A stretch of 44,625 bases of DNA from a virus. The position numbers and the translations under genes were made by a program. Where the stretch lies: the UHGV virus genome UHGV-0129366. One strand, written 5' to 3'. The notes under the pieces were generated by a model that worked only from the letters and a program-made list of their open reading frames with translations, was not told the origin of the DNA and ran no database searches. Positions 4,711 through 38,335 of the stretch are shown in pieces. Numbering within the stretch: position 1 is the stretch's first letter; every line of letters starts with the position of its first letter.

Positions 4711-5326
4711 GGTTAACCTCCTGCGGCGGTTCTGGTAGCGGCATCCAGAACAAGGCGTTCCCTAACCACGATAAAGTGCCGTCGCTCAACTCCACGTATT
4801 CCCCTTGCACCTGTCCTGCCATATACTCACCGTGCTTTGAATAAATTAAAATCCAATCATCTTGAGCGGGCATTCGCTCACTACAGCTTATCCAACCACC
4901 CGGAGTTACCGGAGAGTTGCCGCGTTCTTTAATGTGCAAGCGAGGCTCACCATCTTTTGGTTCAGGCCACTGACGCTCCATGTTGATCTTCAATTTATCT
5001 TCCATAGCAGCGGTAATTTCAGCATCGCTGATGCCAGCACGGCGTTGTGCATCCCACAACAGAAACTGCATATCAGCCCACTCGCTAAGATCGTCTGGTT
5101 CGGCTGCGGCTTCCAGTGCCTCTTTTGAGAGGTGTTTCAGTGGACCAATGGGGCCAACGCAGCCAAATGTGGAGTCAGACCATTTGGCATGCTCGTGGCG
5201 AATCTGTTCGCGTTCCAGTGATGCCAGTGCAATTCGTGCCAGTTCCATTTGTTCGCCACGGGTAAGCCCGTTTTCAAGCGGGTATTTAATGAACAATTCA
5301 ATACGTTCTTTAGTAATAGTGGTCAT
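4703..5326 (-). CDS. MazG-like dNTP pyrophosphohydrolase N-domain with DUF551-like C-terminus
   Basis: 207 aa; acidic EexxE...EWAD motif block (LSKEALEAAAEPDDLSEWADMQFLL) typical of MazG-type NTP-PPases; Trp-rich C-terminal region. Confidence 0.45.
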   Translation of the reverse strand: MTTITKERIELFIKYPLENGLTRGEQMELARIALASLEREQIRHEHAKWSDSTFGCVGPIGPLKHLSKEALEAAAEPDDLSEWADMQFLLWDAQRRAGISDAEITAAMEDKLKINMERQWPEPKDGEPRLHIKERGNSPVTPGGWISCSERMPAQDDWILIYSKHGEYMAGQVQGEYVELSDGTLSWLGNALFWMPLPEPPQEVNRG

Positions 5327-5336
5327 TTGTTAGTCC

Positions 5337-6092
5337 TTAAACTGCTAGTTGCAATTGCATTTCAAAGCGGTCGCGTTGTTCACAATACGCAAGAGAACCA
5401 GGGCTATTGTGTGCCTCAATCCGTTCTACCATTAATGCTGCGCGTGTCTCTTTACTTGCAGGTGCATAAGCCCCAGACCAGGCTTTATCAATACCGATGT
5501 TTCGAGCGACGTTCGTACTATCTGCGCTGGCTAAGGGTAATTTTGTGAATATCAGCGGATTTAACATGCGCAATCCATGTAGTTTCGTAACCGGCTGACC
5601 ATGCCCATCAACAATGTGACGAATCAGGTCTTTCATTCTGGCTACCGCAAGAGTTGGGCGCTTTACGTCATAGTCGCCACAACTACCGATAGCCACTCGC
5701 GGAAACTCATTGCACAAATGAATAAATCGCTCGTCACTTTCATTCATGTGCCACACTGGAACGCCAGCTAGTTTTCCGTGAGGCCACTCATTCAGAAGCG
5801 CATCATTTTCCTCCTCTCCGCCATCAATAATATCCGGGATAATGGCAAAATCGAATCCTGGGTGATTCTTCCAGCGAGCAACAAACTCGTAGTAATCGCT
5901 CCAGTCGATTTTGTTTTTGCCAGCTGCTTTCCAGGCGGTGAATGCACCGTTGTCCAGCGCGAACGACTGACAGTATTCAGCCGCGAGATTGATCTGGCCT
6001 GAATGCGCAAAACTGATAAACGCATGTCGCCCTTTCCATGCTCTCATTGCGCACGTATCAGGAGTAATAGGCCCACCGTGGTAGTGAATCAT
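5337..6092 (-). CDS. tRNA-guanine transglycosylase-fold protein, DpdA-like candidate DNA transglycosylase
   Basis: Collinear motif matches to bacterial Tgt: LDNGAF vs LTDSGGFQ, AIIPDII vs MIFDEC, ADSTNVARNIG vs FDCVMPTRNARNG; no C-terminal zinc-binding CxCxxC...H region; start set at ATG 6092 with AAGGAG SD. Confidence 0.5.
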   Translation of the reverse strand: MIHYHGGPITPDTCAMRAWKGRHAFISFAHSGQINLAAEYCQSFALDNGAFTAWKAAGKNKIDWSDYYEFVARWKNHPGFDFAIIPDIIDGGEEENDALLNEWPHGKLAGVPVWHMNESDERFIHLCNEFPRVAIGSCGDYDVKRPTLAVARMKDLIRHIVDGHGQPVTKLHGLRMLNPLIFTKLPLASADSTNVARNIGIDKAWSGAYAPASKETRAALMVERIEAHNSPGSLAYCEQRDRFEMQLQLAV

Positions 6093-9379: not shown

Positions 9380-10003
9380 TTATGCGACCTCGGAAGGAAG
9401 TCCAATCATCTTATTCAAATCTTCTACCCGTAAAGCAGGAAGTGCTGTACTTGCTTTATCTGCTTCTTTTGGTAGCAACTCTTTGCTTTCAGGCCAAACT
9501 TCAATAAGTCGCTTAACTGTTGTGACTGAGTTCAAAGCAGCCCATACATTTGATTCGATATCCTTTTTCTTGGCTTCAAGTTTTTGTTGCAATGCGCAGA
9601 TTTCATCAAACCTTTTTGTTATTTCGTGTTCTGCGCTAAACATGCATTTATCTTTGGTCGGAGTAGGGAGCAATATATCTTCGCCGTTGCCGTCTTTCCC
9701 ATATGAATACCAGCCAACCCTTCTGCCAGATACAGTCAGATAAATTGAAGTTGAACGGGCATCGCATGAGTAAAATGAACATCCCAGCTTTTCAAGTTCT
9801 TCGCTTATAGCCATTAACTTGGATGATAACTGATCCACTTCCTCAGTTTTCTTTTTACCGCCAAACGCAACAACTCTGGCGTCAAGTGCAAGCTGGTTCT
9901 TTAACTTTGTTACTTCTTCAAGCTCAGTGAAAACCCCAGATTTAATTAAAGCGTTACGAGCGATTTTCTCTTTCATTCTCGTAGTTAAGCGGATTGATGA
10001 CAT
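9380..10003 (-). CDS. Hypothetical early protein (about 207 aa)
   Basis: Start moved to internal ATG 10003 (MSSIRLTT...) preceded by GAGG; lies between N and cIII where lambda carries ral/ea10. Confidence 0.45.
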   Translation of the reverse strand: MSSIRLTTRMKEKIARNALIKSGVFTELEEVTKLKNQLALDARVVAFGGKKKTEEVDQLSSKLMAISEELEKLGCSFYSCDARSTSIYLTVSGRRVGWYSYGKDGNGEDILLPTPTKDKCMFSAEHEITKRFDEICALQQKLEAKKKDIESNVWAALNSVTTVKRLIEVWPESKELLPKEADKASTALPALRVEDLNKMIGLPSEVA

Positions 10004-10064
10004 ATTAATTCCTCTCAAATAAGTGGTTTGCTGCCTAATTTCATTTTCTGGCGACCAACACAAG

Positions 10065-10481: not shown

Positions 10482-10526
10482 TGCCAGTCTGTTCCATTTA
10501 GCTTCCAGCGTCCTGCTGATGTGTTT

Positions 10527-10589
10527 AGTATCACCGCCGGAGGTATTTTCGTCAACACCGCTAGAGATAAAATATTACCGCAAATGGTT
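10527..10589 (-). promoter_or_regulatory. OL1-OL3 operators with pL promoter
   Basis: tatcaccgccggaggta, caacaccgctagagata and tattaccgcaaatggtt are close to lambda OL1/2/3; minus strand TTGACG-17nt-GATACT promoter overlaps OL2/OL1. Confidence 0.75.
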
Positions 10590-10736
10590 ATGTGCATGTT
10601 TTTACTATTGATTTATTTTTTTAAAGTTTTGCAGAGCTAGTCTGGATGTGTAGGAGCTGAATTGCGCAATGTGATAAGTGTGATTTATATTTATTCAATA
10701 AATACAATTCGTTAGGTGTGTTTTTGACGGGCTGAT

Positions 10737-10766
10737 GGTAAAAGAAAACCCGGCGCGGAGGCCGGG
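10737..10766 (-). terminator. Rho-independent terminator ending the cI operon
   Basis: GC hairpin cccggc/gcggag/gccggg followed on the minus strand by TTTTCTTTT, directly after the second rexAB-slot gene. Confidence 0.6.
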
Positions 10767-10781
10767 CTGAAGGGGCTCATT

Positions 10782-11711
10782 CTAATCGATTGATTTAATA
10801 TCCCATTGAGGTCGAGAAACCAGAGTGTATCTGGGCTTGCCCTTACCAACAGTTTTTTTCAGGAACGTGGCTGTTGCAACGCTTCCTAAGTGCTTGTTTA
10901 TAATATCTGGGTCATCTACAGCTTTGTCAATGCTAGCGGTTCTGATATCAGTGTTACCTAAAACTATAAATTCACATTGGCGCTTGTTAGGAAGAGTTCC
11001 CAAAAATATAACGTTCTCAATAATTTTTTCCTGCTGAATGTTATCATTGCTGAGATGTTGATATACAGCTTCAAGCTGTTTTGGCTCTCTAAAAACGATG
11101 CTAAAACCTTGGCTTTTAAGTGTAAAAACTGTTTTATTTTCATGCAGATAATGAATGAATGCTCTGATTTTATCTAAGGCCCGAGAGTCTAAGTTTTCTA
11201 TAGCATCAGACAATTCTTCATCATCATTATCCAAGCTTGCCTGAAATATTTTTCTGGCCTTATTAATAGCTTTTGCTACTGGGGTTTCTTCATCGAATTC
11301 AAGAGGAGCATCAGGTCTAAACTCTTCAAGTACGAATCCGAAAGAACCACGGGCTGACGCGGTAATCATGAGATGATTATTTTCTATGTTTGGTATCTTG
11401 CCTGATGCAGGAAGTGGGCCATTGAAAGAGGTTGCCAAGTAAGCTATTGCATCATTAAAACAAGATATAGCTTTTGTTCCAAATACTGCTGAAATGCCAT
11501 GCGTGCCAACTACTGTTGGGCCTCTAAAAGTTAACACAGCATGCGTAGGTTCATGTTCTCGAACGTCAGCTTGTGAAATTAATCGCTCAACTTTCTCCAG
11601 ACGGTCTTCTAAGCTTTTTCGGCTAATAGAATGACTTGTTGGCATATTTTTTAATAGATTACTTATTTGCTCGCGCTCACTGAGAGCGAAAACATAATCA
11701 TTACGATTCAT
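10782..11711 (-). CDS. Uncharacterised protein, second gene of the rexAB-slot operon (309 aa)
   Basis: Long ORF, start overlaps the upstream gene stop by 4 bp (ATGA); no family recognised; contains an R-x6-H stretch (RAFIHYLH) of unknown significance. Confidence 0.6.
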   Translation of the reverse strand: MNRNDYVFALSEREQISNLLKNMPTSHSISRKSLEDRLEKVERLISQADVREHEPTHAVLTFRGPTVVGTHGISAVFGTKAISCFNDAIAYLATSFNGPLPASGKIPNIENNHLMITASARGSFGFVLEEFRPDAPLEFDEETPVAKAINKARKIFQASLDNDDEELSDAIENLDSRALDKIRAFIHYLHENKTVFTLKSQGFSIVFREPKQLEAVYQHLSNDNIQQEKIIENVIFLGTLPNKRQCEFIVLGNTDIRTASIDKAVDDPDIINKHLGSVATATFLKKTVGKGKPRYTLVSRPQWDIKSID

Positions 11712-12286
11712 TGTTTGACCCCCTCAGTAGTAGCCGAATTAAGTATAGTCATTGCCACAACATCAAGTTGTGGGTTTAACGGGATTTGGATAAATCCCTT
11801 CCACGACAGATCGCGTCTATGTGCCCACATACTGTACCAATATACAGTCATTTCAACAAGCTCATGACTTGGTAGATTAAGTTCTTGGAAGTAGGAATCT
11901 ACGAAAAACTCCTTCTTAACAAAATCATGATCAAATAGCTCTGGCTTTCTACCGATTACGATTGCATCATTATCGCCATTACTGAATTGAAAAAAGGTCA
12001 CAACATCGACATCATTCGGTGGCCTTTTTTCAATAAGTTCAATATGTTCTGTGAAGCTTCCATCTACCCACTGAAAACCTTCAACTAGCCCTGCTTGAGT
12101 GAGTGAAACACGAAAGTTAAGAAAACCCTTAAGGATTTTAATCCTTGCAGGGCTAAGCGAAAAAGTACTAACAAAGCGTACTATATCCATTTTGTATGGG
12201 GAACGAGTATGGCTTGTAGGATCAGCCTCGTCTATTGGGGGGATTAACCCCATCTCATTCCATAGAGAGACAGTTGGTATACTCAA
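11708..12286 (-). CDS. Uncharacterised protein, first gene of the rexAB-slot operon (192 aa)
   Basis: Begins 86 bp downstream of cI on the same strand; segment VDGSFTEHIELIEKRPPNDVDVV loosely resembles a GS...DxD nucleotidyltransferase-fold signature. Confidence 0.6.
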   Translation of the reverse strand: MSIPTVSLWNEMGLIPPIDEADPTSHTRSPYKMDIVRFVSTFSLSPARIKILKGFLNFRVSLTQAGLVEGFQWVDGSFTEHIELIEKRPPNDVDVVTFFQFSNGDNDAIVIGRKPELFDHDFVKKEFFVDSYFQELNLPSHELVEMTVYWYSMWAHRRDLSWKGFIQIPLNPQLDVVAMTILNSATTEGVKQ

Positions 12287-12372
12287 TGCTTAACCTTTAT
12301 AACGAACTGAATATTCGGCAAAATATTGTTTTTAGGTATTGGCTGCTGTGCTTGTCGGACGTTTATTTCGTG

Positions 12373-13089
<717 letters not shown>

Positions 13090-13096
13090 TTAAATC

Positions 13097-13162
13097 TATC
13101 ACCGCAGGGGATAAATATCTAACACCGCAGATGTTGACTATTTTACCTCTGGCGGTGATAAT
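13097..13162. promoter_or_regulatory. OR3-OR2-OR1 operators with PR and PRM
   Basis: OR3 tatcaccgcaggggata 13097-13113, OR2 taacaccgcagatgttg 13120-13136, OR1 tacctctggcggtgata 13144-13160; PR -35 ttgact 13134-13139 and -10 gataat 13157-13162. Confidence 0.9.
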
Positions 13163-13177
13163 GACTGTATGTACTAA

Positions 13178-13387
<210 letters not shown>

Positions 13388-13394
13388 GTAACCC

Positions 13395-13440
13395 CGCTCT
13401 TTGTAACAACGGACATTCGTCCTACGTCGCTGAAAAGCGA
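13395..13440 (+). promoter_or_regulatory. nutR: Candidate nutR (boxA plus boxB)
   Basis: boxA CGCTCTTTG 13395-13403; boxB hairpin UCGCU-GAAA-AGCGA 13427-13440. Confidence 0.5.
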
Positions 13441-13847: not shown

Positions 13848-13991
13848 ATGCGAAAAACGCAGGAAAATAAACGCGTTAATCACCGAAAAGATGTGCTACG
13901 TGACCAGTTTTATCAGGGGGTTAATCCAGCAATAGCTGTGCCACTGAGAGAAATACTTAACAGGTACAAAACTTCGGAGAAGTCAAAATGA
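13848..13991 (+). CDS. Small basic hypothetical protein (47 aa)
   Basis: ATG with GCGAGG SD 7 nt upstream; stop overlaps the O-like start (ATGA). Confidence 0.3.
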   Translation: MRKTQENKRVNHRKDVLRDQFYQGVNPAIAVPLREILNRYKTSEKSK

Positions 13992-14809
13992 GCATGAATC
14001 TTATGGCTAAGGCCATGAATATAAAGGTTGGCAACCCACTGAGAAAACTGGTTCTGATTAAACTTGCCGATAACGCCAATGATAATGGCGAATGCTGGCC
14101 TTCATATCAACATGTCGCTGACCAGTGTGAGGTGAGCAGATCGACAGTAAAAAGTCACATTAGGGCACTGGAAGAGATGGGGCTTTTGAAAAGGGAATTC
14201 AGAAGAAAAGGAGAGCTTAACCAGTCAAACGTTTTTTATCTGACGCTGGATAATGCACAACAAATCCAGCCAGAATCAGGTGGGGCAGGAGCTGCCCGGG
14301 GTGGGGCAGGAGCTGCCCGGGGTGGGGCAGGAGCTGCCCTAGGGGGTGGGGCAGGAGCTGCCCTAGGGGGTGGGGCAGGAGCTGCCCCCAGAACCTATCA
14401 CTCTTTTGAACCAGTCAATGAACCTAAAAACATTATGTTCGAACATGTCCGAACAGAGTGTGAAAAAACTCCTGACCGTCACGAAGAAACCGACAAGGCA
14501 TTCGAGGAAATATTCTGGTGTGCAGGCATGCGGAAAGCCGGGAAGAAAAACGCAGCTTCAGCATTCAGAACACAGTTCAGGGAATGGCGTAAAACTACCA
14601 GGGGTACGGCAAGCGAGTTTGCCACGATGCTGGCAGAAGACATCGCATGCAGGAATGGTAAGCAGTTCGGATTCGACAGGTTGTTACCATCGAGCTACCT
14701 GAACGGTCAACGCTGGAACGACGAGAAGCCAGAAACTATTCAACCACAATCCAAACCATCATCCGCAATCACCGTATCGAAAACTGGCTACGTGTTTTTC
14801 GACAGGTGA
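13988..14809 (+). CDS. Replication initiator, lambda O-like, with internal origin iterons
   Basis: 273 aa; N-terminal DNA-binding region; Gly/Ala-rich linker encoded by tandem DNA repeats; position after cII and before the helicase. Confidence 0.65.
   Translation: MSMNLMAKAMNIKVGNPLRKLVLIKLADNANDNGECWPSYQHVADQCEVSRSTVKSHIRALEEMGLLKREFRRKGELNQSNVFYLTLDNAQQIQPESGGAGAARGGAGAARGGAGAALGGGAGAALGGGAGAAPRTYHSFEPVNEPKNIMFEHVRTECEKTPDRHEETDKAFEEIFWCAGMRKAGKKNAASAFRTQFREWRKTTRGTASEFATMLAEDIACRNGKQFGFDRLLPSSYLNGQRWNDEKPETIQPQSKPSSAITVSKTGYVFFDR
14279..14389 (+). repeat. Five tandem iterons (candidate ori) inside the O-like gene
   Basis: tggggcaggagctgccc at 14281, 14302, 14323, 14347 and 14371 (periods 21, 21, 24, 24); each copy is internally palindromic (gggcag/ctgccc). 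Confidence 0.6.
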
Positions 14810-34667: not shown

Positions 34668-36083
34668 ATGGCTGCTTGGCAACAGGGTATTAATTCTGGT
34701 GGTTTTCTGGCTGGCATCGGTACGCAAAATGAGAATGCGCCAAAGGCAAGCGACATTAACGCAACGCTTGGTCTGATCCGCGAAAACAATGAACTGGCTC
34801 GCTCAGGTACAAATAACGTTGGTCTGACCGCGTTACGTGGTCTGGCTGGAGTTGCTGATATTTACAATCAGGAACAGCAACAGAAAGCGATTAGTGCGTT
34901 CAATAAGGTTCATGCTGATGCATGGGCTTCTGGTGATCCATCGGGACTATTTAAGTTTGCCCAGGAAAATCCAGCGTTTGTTGCACAGGCACAACAGGCG
35001 TTTTCAGGTCTTAATGATCAGCAACGCAACGATATGGGCGATTTAGCCATGAGAGCTAACGTCGCTCTTTCTCAGGGACCGGAAGCCTACAGTAAATTCA
35101 TTACTGACAACAAGGACAGGTTAAATCGCGTGGGGGCGAATGCTGACTGGATGATTCAGACAGGTATCCAGAATCCAGAGCAGCTATCACACATGCTGAC
35201 TACTATGTCTCTCGGTGCGCTTGGACCAGAAAAGGCGTTTGCTGTTCAGGACAAGATGGCTGGTCGTGAAATTGACCGAGGCAGACTGGCAGAGACAATC
35301 CGCAGCAATCAGGCTGGAGAAGCACTTCAGGCGAGAGGGCAAAACCTTTCCTATCAGTCAGCAATGACTGGGCACAATATCGCAGCACAACGCTTGGCTC
35401 TGGATCAGCAAGAGTTTGGGTTTAAGATGCAGCAAGCGCAGGAAAAGGCTCAGCAGTTGATTAGCGAAGCACCTAAGCTGTCAGTAAACATGGAAAAAGG
35501 CATCGAGACGGCTGTAAACAATGCCACAGCATCATCAAACTCAGCCAATTCCATGAGTGCGCTTGCTCAACAGTTCAGAGCAGAAAAACCAACGACAGGT
35601 TTGTTCGGTAACGCACAGAACATGTTCGCAAAACTTACCGGAAGCGATACGACATTGCGTGATTTGCGCATTCGCCAAAATGCCCTTGTTAACAGTCAGG
35701 TTCTTAAATTCCTACCTCCCGGCCCAGCAACGGATAAAGACGTTGAGATCGTTCGACAGGGTGCGCCAACTGACATGGATAACCCTGAGACGGTCGCAAG
35801 ATGGCTTGATGCAATGGCAAACCTTGAGCGACGAAACGCGCAGTTTAATGAGTTTAAAGCCGAGTGGATGAGCGCGAATGGCAACCCTGGACAATCGCGT
35901 AATGGCGGTCAGATATTGGGGTTGGATGTTAAAAAAGGTGAATCATTGGGGAGTGCCGTTAAGCGGTATATGTCATTGAATACTGACGCAGCGCCAGCAC
36001 AAGATTCGACACCTTCAGGAGAACCACGGAATCAGGTTGGATCATATACCTCAAAATCAGGCATTCAATTTACGGTGGAATGA
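34668..36083 (+). CDS. Ejection protein (P22 gp20-like)
   Basis: 471 aa; position and size as P22 gp20. Confidence 0.75.
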
Positions 36084-37921
36084 TGAAAGTTACTGCAAAC
36101 GGTAAGACATTTACCTTTCCTGATGGTACGAGCACGGAAGATATTGGCACCGCCATTGATGAGTATTTTGCTGGTCAGGCTGTTCAGCAACAAACAGTTA
36201 ATCAGGCCAATAATGCACCAACACGGGAAGAACCATCATTGATGCAACAAGCTGGCGATTGGCTCACTGGTGGTCAAAGTGCAGGGCAAATTGCGGAACA
36301 GGCTGGTCGTGGTCTGGTAAACATACCATTTGACGTATTGCAGGGCGGCGCAAGTCTGATTAATGCAATCAGCCAGGGGCTTGGTGGCCCCAAGGTTTTG
36401 GACGATGTCTATCGTCCAGTCGATCGACCAACAGACCCTTATGCGCAAGCTGGAGAAACAATTGGCGGGTATTTAGTTCCAGGAGTTGGAACGGCAGGAA
36501 GCATGGCTATTGGATCACTGGCAGAGGCCGCAAATCAGAAAGGCGATTTCGCACAAAATGCAGCTAAAAATGCCGGAGTTAACCTTGCCGCTCAGGGGGT
36601 TCTTTCCGCAGCAGCAAAGGGAATAGGGCGTGGAATAACGGCTATAAAAGGTGATATTGCGCCAGAAGTGGCGAAGAAAATTGCCACATCAGAATCGATG
36701 GGCGTGACACCAATGACATCTGATGTTATCCCGCCGAAAAATGCTTTCACTCGCGGCCTAACTCAGGATGCCGAGGGGGCTTTGCTCGGGACAGGCTCAA
36801 AGCGAGCGGAGCAATATGCAACGCGTAGTAAGCTGGTAAGTAATTATTTTGACCGTTTTGGTGAGTACAACCCTGATGATGTGGTGAAATCTCTTACCAC
36901 CACGTTAAGGGGGCGGAAGGATGCCGCTGGCGCTGTTATCAATGACGTCACCAATAAAATGGGTAATGCCGCAGTTGATACCACAAATACCATGAATGCT
37001 CTGAATACAGCGATCGCAAGACAGGAACGACTTGGGACGTCTGCCAATCAAAGCCTGCTTACATCCTTGCGTAACCTACGTGAAGAATTAGCAAACCCTG
37101 CAACTGATTTGGATGTTACGTTTGATCTCTTGCGTCAGCACAGAACAGCATTTAGATCTAATGTTCAGGGAGATGCTATGGTCTTCCCCAACCAGGCAAA
37201 AGCAGCTACCAATATGGTAGAGAATGCAATGTCAAAAGACCTTCGTAACGCAGTTGCTAAAAACCTCGGTGCATCAGACGCAGCAAAATACCTTAAAGCA
37301 AATTCCGATTATGCAAACGTTTATAATAAGGTGCTTAATAAAAACATTGCTAACAAACTCAACAAGGCAAGCAGTGAAGCCAGTCCTGAACTTATAAATA
37401 CCGTTGTATTAAGCAGAAAACCATCTGACGTGAAACGAATCTGGAGCGCATTGGATAATAAAGGGAAAGATGCTATGCGTGCAGCTTATGTCAGCAAAAT
37501 AGCGGAAAAGGCCGGTGACTCTCCAGCCAAGTTCATCACTGAAGTTAATAAGCTGAAATCTCAGTCAGGCGGTGAAATTTACAACACTATTTTTTCTGGA
37601 AAGCACATGAAAGAGCTTGATTCTCTTCATGAAGTTCTACAGCAAACAGCAAGGTCAGACACCGCAAATGTAGTAACTCAGACGGGGCAATCGCAAGCCA
37701 ACAGGATAAGGACGATTGGCGCAACTGCGACTCTTGGCGTATCAATGGGGCTTGAGGCTGGTTTCGGTGCAATGATGCGCTTGTATGAGTCCAAAGCAGC
37801 AAGGAATGCTCTCTTACGTTTGGCAAACACCAAAGCAGGAACACCAGCCTATGAAAGAGCGTTGAGTAACGCTGCAAATGCCATCAGACCGCTGCTTGCC
37901 ACTGAGGCAACACAGCAGTAA
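36080..37921 (+). CDS. Ejection protein (P22 gp16-like)
   Basis: 613 aa; position and size as P22 gp16; overlaps the preceding gene. Confidence 0.75.
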
Positions 37922-37945
37922 CGTATGGGGAATTGGATTCAATCG

Positions 37946-38335
37946 TTAACATTTTCTTTTTACTTTTCCAACAAAAGCTTTGGTTGAATCCATATTCCCA
38001 TAACCAGAAATGGTTTTCGACATTAAAACTGTTCCATTAGGATGTATTACCCATGAGTCGATAACTCGTTGAGTTTCGCCATTCGCGCCGATTCCAATGA
38101 TGGAGTTTTTAGACAATGCTTTGTAAGCCATGCCGCCCGCATCTGTCCCAGAATATGTGATGCTGGCATCTTCACTGCTTGTCTTAATGATGAATGTTCC
38201 ACTAAAACCATCTTCTTCCGGATGGAAATTATTTCGTTCTGAATAGCTTATTCCGCGCATATCTCCAACGACCCAGCACTCTGCTGTAGCCCCAAAAGAT
38301 ATGAATAAGAACATAGCAGCAAGAAATTGCTTCAC
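37946..38335 (-). CDS. Secreted (signal-peptide) hypothetical protein
   Basis: GTG start 5 nt after AAGGAGG; predicted signal peptide MKQFLAAMFLFISFGATA then mature protein; in the sieA-equivalent variable slot. Confidence 0.5.
   Translation of the reverse strand: MKQFLAAMFLFISFGATAECWVVGDMRGISYSERNNFHPEEDGFSGTFIIKTSSEDASITYSGTDAGGMAYKALSKNSIIGIGANGETQRVIDSWVIHPNGTVLMSKTISGYGNMDSTKAFVGKVKRKC

Follow-up and report, generated by a model that had tools for sequence, protein, structure and literature searches.

The place that rexA and rexB hold in phage lambda is taken, in the virus genome UHGV-0129366 (44,625 nucleotides, all of which was analysed and is called the window below), by two translationally coupled genes, here named A and B. 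Together they form a widespread candidate defence cassette, already catalogued by two prediction efforts. The cI-to-OL interval of lambdoid phages, in which the pair lies, is the historical home of prophage-encoded exclusion. Gene A very likely encodes a nucleotidyltransferase of the Pol-beta type, judging from its invariant motifs and predicted structure, and gene B encodes a soluble partner with an OB-like C terminus in its model. Our favoured reading of the function, to which we give slightly less than an even chance, is that A-B is an anti-phage module expressed in the lysogen, acting by exclusion or abortive infection, in which nucleotidyl transfer by A controls B. Here, we report the evidence for the cassette, its family and its distribution, and weigh that reading against its rivals.

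The immunity region around the pair, in a prophage of E. coli, is of the lambda type, as had been proposed in a preliminary description of this DNA. The cI protein shares 94.5% identity with lambda cI, the cI-cro DNA is 91.5% identical to lambda (BLASTN), OR1 (TACCTCTGGCGGTGATA) matches lambda exactly at 13144-13160, and an OL1-like operator with 1 mismatch lies at 10529-10545. Two blocks of BLASTN homology frame the interval. Window 12373-13401 corresponds to lambda 37227-38255, with its edge at the cI stop codon, and window 10508-10766 corresponds to lambda 35570-35824, with its edge 1 nt before the rexB stop. With the breakpoints so placed, window 10767-12372 substitutes exactly for lambda 35825-37226 (rexB-rexA). 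The coordinates, the breakpoints and the ATGA overlap of the A stop with the B start (tcat on the plus strand, 11708-11711) bear out the earlier claim of an unrelated, translationally coupled pair on the cI strand in the rexAB slot. The gap between cI and A and the terminator ahead of OL were also found as described (Table 1); the terminator sits at the junction with lambda homology and within the cassette block common to two other loci, L020 and L022. Mosaicism is known to concentrate in the cI-N interval, which holds rexAB in lambda and bstA in BTP1 (PMC8585504). On the minus strand of the spacer (12287-12372), no terminator-like or promoter-like site was found, which, with a strong terminator after B, fits transcription running on from cI. 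In the lysogen, A and B are most probably co-transcribed with cI by read-through from PRM/PRE.

Both open reading frames are real genes and not chance ones, because they have homologues (best E values of 1e-125 for A and 1e-200 for B) and low ratios of nonsynonymous to synonymous substitution (dN/dS). Against L020, dN/dS was 0.16 for A and 0.10 for B, and against L022 it was 0.08 and 0.04, respectively; both genes are under purifying selection. Of 5426 complete E. coli genomes, 8 contain the cassette DNA at 100% identity, among them that of the meningitis strain CE10, where it lies in a prophage adjoining torS and its genes are labelled "DUF6932 family protein" (A) and "hypothetical protein" (B) in RefSeq. 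A second allele, at the equivalent position behind a different cI (44% identity), occurs in 26 further genomes; its A shares 67% DNA identity, and its B 50% protein identity, with the window.

The preliminary description could name no family for either protein, a statement that no longer holds. The product of A matches Pfam DUF6932 (PF22014; E value, 2e-26), phrog_9194 (2.7e-38) and the PADLOC family PDC-M63A (PDLC04744, 2.2e-10; PDLC04745, 1.5e-4). That of B matches phrog_18731 (function not assigned; 3.6e-53), and relatives of B match PDC-M63B. Against Pfam and NCBIfam, B gave no match, and against the PADLOC models it gave none at an E value of ≤1.

The AlphaFold model of A is confident (predicted local distance difference test [pLDDT], 91.2; predicted template modelling score [pTM], 0.87) and carries the signature of the nucleotidyltransferase fold where it would be expected. 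G76-S77 (the hG[GS] motif) stands directly after the strand at 70-75 (beta1), D92-V-D94 opens the strand at 93-99 (beta2), and a third carboxylate, D130, lies on the strand at 129-135 (beta3). None of the five residues (G76, S77, D92, D94 and D130) varies among 34 unique locus sequences from very diverse taxa, and G76-S77 is likewise invariant in 39 aligned A-family sequences. The GS...DxD signature noticed at the outset is thus real and the best-conserved feature of the family. The best PDB match in Foldseek was 2rff, a putative minimal nucleotidyltransferase (MNT; probability, 0.92; E value, 0.04), and seven entries of the nucleotidyltransferase fold stand among the best 50 matches, including 7ae9_H (MNT), 1wot, CdnC and FAM46C. 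A remote HHblits match of A to a CBASS SMODS nucleotidyltransferase is given in the DefensePredictor tables (probability, 77.7; coverage, 18%). With hhalign, the A family showed no similarity to an approximate sequence of a kanamycin nucleotidyltransferase. The core is flanked by two conserved extensions, one N-terminal (residues 5-45; IPxWNxxGVxPP...RSPY) and one C-terminal (140-170; Y149 W150, H156, R158 and W162 K163 G164). Conservation of IPxWN at the N terminus favours the longer form of A, starting at TTG. Pfam scans of 39 A-family members at lax thresholds found no recurring second family.

The family of B is large. A profile scan of 1.84 billion representatives gave 1468 relatives (cluster representatives at 50% identity) at an E value of ≤1e-3, 609 of them at ≤1e-30, nearly all 300-315 aa long and aligned end to end; Pfam scans of 70 diverse members at lax thresholds gave no recurring match. 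The model of B is good (pLDDT, 86.6; pTM, 0.74). In it, a helical hairpin (3-46) is followed by an alpha/beta domain with a beta-alpha-beta-beta unit (57-130), in which the family signature R-G122-S123-F-G-F lies on the beta2-beta3 hairpin. The chain goes on through three helices and a small hairpin to a C-terminal barrel (225-297). This barrel is predicted to be OB-like, since its strand order (b1-b2-b3-helix-b4-b5) is that of OB folds, and the C terminus repeatedly drew weak OB-fold matches in Foldseek over 80-100 columns (probability, 0.75-0.96), among them eIF5A, the LysRS N-domain, SSB/Rim1, RPA, CusF/SilF and ExoVII. Across the 70 diverse members, G64, F77, G122 and S123 are invariant, and R37, R177, P241 and E247 are nearly so. 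Maximum KD19 hydrophobicity is 1.16, and the absence of a hydrophobic segment marks B as soluble.

A and B are an obligate pair. In 48 of 48 loci (33 IMG/VR contigs found via B, 12 genome or metagenome loci found via A, and 3 plasmid loci), A stands directly upstream of B on the same strand, with a 4-nt overlap at the junction in most called gene pairs. The amino acid identities of the two proteins move in step (A/B: 0.92/0.94, 0.83/0.83 and 0.70/0.71). The loci span Enterobacterales, Burkholderiales, alphaproteobacterial plasmids and one planctomycete, with E. coli, Salmonella, Klebsiella, Serratia, Proteus, Burkholderia, Collimonas, Pseudomonas, Methylobacterium, Bradyrhizobium and the planctomycete Bremerella among the hosts. 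At one locus (L036:3992-4890; IMG/VR UViG 2838864276_000009, a Proteus-type prophage), B is broken in two by the loss of 1 nt from an A8 run, with A intact; apart from this, the region shares 99.93% identity with locus L002. The break could mean a true pseudogene or an error of homopolymer sequencing.

The cassette is a self-contained mobile unit that moves between immunity types. The pair stands directly after a prophage repressor in at least 24 of 41 loci; these repressors are of several unrelated types (lambda-like, other S24 repressors, or short HTH_3/Phage_CI_repr proteins). At other loci the pair follows the lysis cassette. Identity of L020 to the window (92.2%) is confined to window 12378-10737, and that of L022 (78.5%) to 12306-10737; in both, the repressor is different and the flanks are unrelated. 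With homology confined to this block, the unit of exchange is the spacer, A, B and the terminator, nearly the same interval as the one given in the preliminary description (10737-12372). The GC content of the cassette is 36-41%, and that of its flanks is 43-53%. No RNA partner in the style of type III systems came up in Rfam and tandem-repeat scans.

The surroundings of the cassette vary. In Proteus mirabilis prophages (L002-L005:5614-5949), an extra DUF3024 gene stands between cI and A-B. On the L018 contig, which is 96.5% identical over cI-A-B, ~385 bp (4967-5353) that are absent at window 10745-10770 lie between the terminator and the OL-homologous region. Some nonphage copies adjoin SLFN/AlbA_2, HATPase_c_4 or multiubiquitin-ThiF-DUF6527 genes, and others sit amid ordinary chromosomal genes (L006 by ilvC-type genes, L046 by ABC transporters). 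On the Bradyrhizobium plasmid pBs5S5b (L050:5539-8371), A-B abuts an operon of DUF6527, ThiF-family adenylyltransferase and multiubiquitin-domain genes, with VPA1262-family and SOS-response-associated peptidase (SRAP) genes nearby, a neighbourhood that looks like a conflict-system island. An SRAP gene by A-B recurs, at L037:2289-3221 and L035 (both high-GC loci) and at L050:1332-2072.

The two predictions that already cover the pair are independent. PADLOC lists A + B as PDC-M63, a "phage defence candidate" of guilt-by-embedding origin, a class of which most members are unvalidated (PMC12988326). On sequence matches, the window pair may be assigned to PDC-M63 directly for A and, for B, by a transitive link only. 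Two relatives of B match PDC-M63B (L007, E value of 6.7e-7; L046, 1e-9 along all 309 positions of the profile), and both are homologues of B (hhalign probability of 100 to the B family for L007; B-profile E value of 5e-36 for L046). Because these relatives match and the B of the window does not, the pair appears to belong to a divergent enterobacterial prophage branch of PDC-M63, and PADLOC would miss this branch. DefensePredictor (Science 2026, Tables S5 and S10) lists WP_001081279.1 as a "Predicted novel defense gene" (log-odds, 6.68); this is the accession of the 309-aa B in CE10 RefSeq, within a block 100% identical to the window. The adjacent upstream gene, WP_000522969.1 (181 aa), carries the same label (log-odds, 5.74; Science 2026) and is taken to be a shorter-start form of A from its position beside B. 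Both entries come from an ECOR-collection assembly and lie above the strict cutoff of 4. DUF6932 is not among the domains newly validated by DefensePredictor, and our literature search found nothing on DUF6932 and no study characterising the A-B pair.

Comparison with known systems shows what the cassette shares and what it lacks. With lambda RexA-RexB it shares the slot (from the cI stop to the terminator before OL), the strand, the number of genes and, as we expect, transcription driven in the lysogen by the repressor promoters. The proteins themselves are unlike (BLASTP E value, >1), as is the DNA of the interval, which shows no homology; RexB spans the membrane several times (maximum KD19, 2.39), whereas A (1.13) and B are soluble, and Rex has no counterpart to the nucleotidyltransferase. 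Homology of A or B to RexA or RexB was accordingly rejected, there being neither BLASTP similarity nor a hydrophobic segment in either protein. BstA of the Salmonella prophage BTP1 is similar in being a prophage defence gene downstream of cI, presumably using the same promoter (PMC8585504), and differs in being a single protein with no similarity to A or B. PDC-M63 agrees in gene order, in having two genes, in protein sizes and in the match of A, and disagrees in that B matches no PADLOC model; a PADLOC scan of A and B gave no match besides PDC-M63A.

Closest in logic are Hailong, in which the HalA channel is kept in check by DNA that the nucleotidyltransferase HalB makes, and Clover, whose CloA dGTPase is held back by p3diT, a product of the nucleotidyltransferase CloB. 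Both have two genes and a small nucleotidyltransferase with a DxD site, which is needed there for the signal that restrains the partner, and the OB fold modelled in B would suit a nucleotide or DNA ligand. The likeness ends at the partner, as B is neither a membrane channel nor an HD dNTPase (no HD Pfam match in 70 members), and no HalB or CloB structure was found among the top Foldseek matches of A. Given the Hailong and Clover precedent, we favour a model in which a product of A is held by B or B is nucleotidylated by A. The cassette (A, B and terminator), taking the rexA-rexB slot base for base, would be read through from cI in the lysogen, and the nucleotidyl-transfer activity of A would control B. 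In one version, A would make a nucleotide or oligonucleotide ligand held by the OB fold of B; in the other, A would nucleotidylate B directly, with the invariant Ser123 as the candidate site. Infection would then disturb that A-B state. The stronger proposal, which we put forward tentatively and consider somewhat unlikely, is that A-B would open a new class of immune modules gated by a nucleotidyltransferase, as the first of its kind to be studied, with A loading the OB fold of B with a nucleotide-derived ligand or attaching a nucleotide covalently to Ser123, and infection releasing or triggering an effector activity of a fold without a solved relative.

Several observations weigh against the anti-phage reading. 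Deletion of PDC-M63AB from a prophage of E. coli NILS69 left infection by 10 virulent phages unchanged (bioRxiv 10.1101/2024.12.20.629700). DefensePredictor validated 45% of its cloned predictions (Science 2026), and the A-B unit is in neither its table of 94 cloned units nor its 42 validated systems; the defence role of A-B is a prediction, and the pair a candidate. On the structural side, no Foldseek match of A or of B reaches an E value of ≤1e-3, and profile searches of PDB sequences gave A nothing but artefactual matches to designer-PPR repeats, and B nothing but noise from BAG or ribosomal proteins. An effector domain is not recognisable in B, which lacks a membrane segment and a nuclease motif and conserves few polar residues, chiefly S123, R37, R177 and E247. 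Co-transcription with cI is read from the sequence only. Finally, neither the cassette (megablast) nor A or B (tblastn) had a match in 50,697 isolated GenBank phage genomes, which, set beside the 33 IMG/VR contigs that carry the pair, suggests that prophages with the cassette are seldom recovered as free phages.

Two rival explanations keep the nucleotidyltransferase and change its role. The preliminary description had raised an MNT/HEPN-like pair, as in type VII toxin-antitoxin systems, where an MNT-like enzyme AMPylates a HEPN RNase. Its MNT half has some support, inasmuch as the nearest structural analogues of A are minimal nucleotidyltransferases (best match, 2rff), including the MNT antitoxin 7ae9_H; the catalytic core of A resembles these and 1wot, and the enzyme gene comes first, upstream of its partner, in both. 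The HEPN half fails because the histidine of the R183-x6-H190 stretch in B is variable, with F, Y, S, I, K and V also occurring at position 190. A HEPN domain in B was further rejected on the absence of any R...H pair among the invariant residues, on the mixed alpha/beta and OB fold and on profiles, no HEPN model of Pfam or PADLOC matching any of 70 B-family members. The extensions of A at 5-45 and 140-170 are also absent from MNTs of ~100 aa. At the level of motif and fold, an MNT-HEPN system is effectively refuted, and we regard it as barely credible. Alternatively, A could be a toxic nucleotidyltransferase that blocks tRNA or other RNA in the manner of MenT or AbiEii, with B as its antitoxin or phage sensor. 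The intact, invariant active site of A would serve such a toxin, its aromatic and basic C-terminal patch (Y149 W150 H156 R158 W162 K163) could bind a nucleic acid acceptor, the helical hairpin and OB fold of B would suit sensing of a protein or single-stranded nucleic acid, and the two proteins are always paired. We consider this explanation quite unlikely: no MenT or AbiEii structure is among the best 50 Foldseek matches of A, the PADLOC AbiE and MenT models gave no match, and the enzyme gene comes first, the usual position of an antitoxin. The split B beside an intact A in L036, lethal were B an essential antitoxin, is a mild point against it, since a sequencing error is possible.

Two further explanations do away with the anti-phage role. 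A-B may be accessory cargo for host physiology, nucleic acid or nucleotide metabolism, or regulation or maintenance of the prophage, carried in a permissive lysogenic slot; the lack of a phenotype of the PDC-M63AB deletion in its native host, the L006 and L046 copies in ordinary chromosomal surroundings with no defence neighbours and the lack of a known effector domain in B all fit this. Two independent defence predictors flag the pair, however, and its patchy, mobile, low-GC occurrence in prophage cargo slots with occasional defence neighbours is the profile of known defence genes, so we hold this explanation to be unlikely while giving it real weight. Very improbable, in our view, is a counter-defence module in which a phage nucleotidyltransferase and a binder would neutralise immune nucleotides of the host or modify a host defence factor. 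A phage-borne pair with nucleotide chemistry and an OB-type binder would be suited to that task, but its genes lie in the presumed lysogenic transcript after the repressor and not among the early lytic genes, occur also on plasmids and on chromosomes outside prophages, and are absent from the isolated phage genomes searched.

Table 1. Features of the immunity region and rexA-rexB slot of UHGV-0129366 (positions in the window)
Feature	Position	Strand	Remarks
cI repressor gene, lambda type	12373-13086	-	237 aa; HTH_3 + Peptidase_S24
OR3-OR2-OR1 operators with PRM/PR	13097-13160		Read from sequence; within lambda-homologous block
OL/pL region	10508-10746	-	75.8% identity with lambda 35570-35824
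cI-A spacer, 86 bp	12287-12372	-	AAGG ribosome-binding site 7 nt before TTG start
Gene A, DUF6932, probable nucleotidyltransferase	11708-12286	-	192 aa; TTG start, AAGG upstream
Gene B, soluble partner	10782-11711	-	309 aa
Intrinsic terminator after B	10768-10747	-	8-pair stem, 6 G-C pairs, then T run
Horizontally exchanged unit (spacer, A, B, terminator)	10737-12378	-	Homology limits versus L020 (versus L022, 10737-12306)

Two other features of the window lie near the cassette. An open reading frame of the pL operon (9380-10063, minus strand) has a counterpart in CE10 annotated "Nmad5 family putative nucleotide modification protein" and is a second nucleotide-related accessory gene in the vicinity. 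Within a replication-initiator-like open reading frame (13988-14809, plus strand), a tandem repeat of ~22-24 bp at 14279-14387 (~4.9 copies, 96% matches) encodes GGAGAA(R/L) peptide repeats and probably represents origin iterons. The gene is 777 nt long in CE10 and 822 nt in the window, which suggests variation in copy number.

That the rex slot holds different cargo in different phages will not surprise specialists; the value of this cassette is that it places a large nucleotidyltransferase and OB-fold family in the most tractable genetic background. The immunity region being otherwise lambda-like, lambda genetics are directly usable (cI857 induction, rex-swap constructs and heteroimmune challenge). 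The family of B is large (1468 representatives), has neither a Pfam entry nor a solved relative, and is called defensive by two predictors. If the group transferred by A and its target were shown, the pair would provide either a new type of effector for nucleotidyltransferase-signalled immunity or a false-positive benchmark for defence predictors. Were the new-class reading true, it would apply to a family of >1,400 clusters in Proteobacteria and Planctomycetota that rides prophage cargo slots, the rex slot among them.

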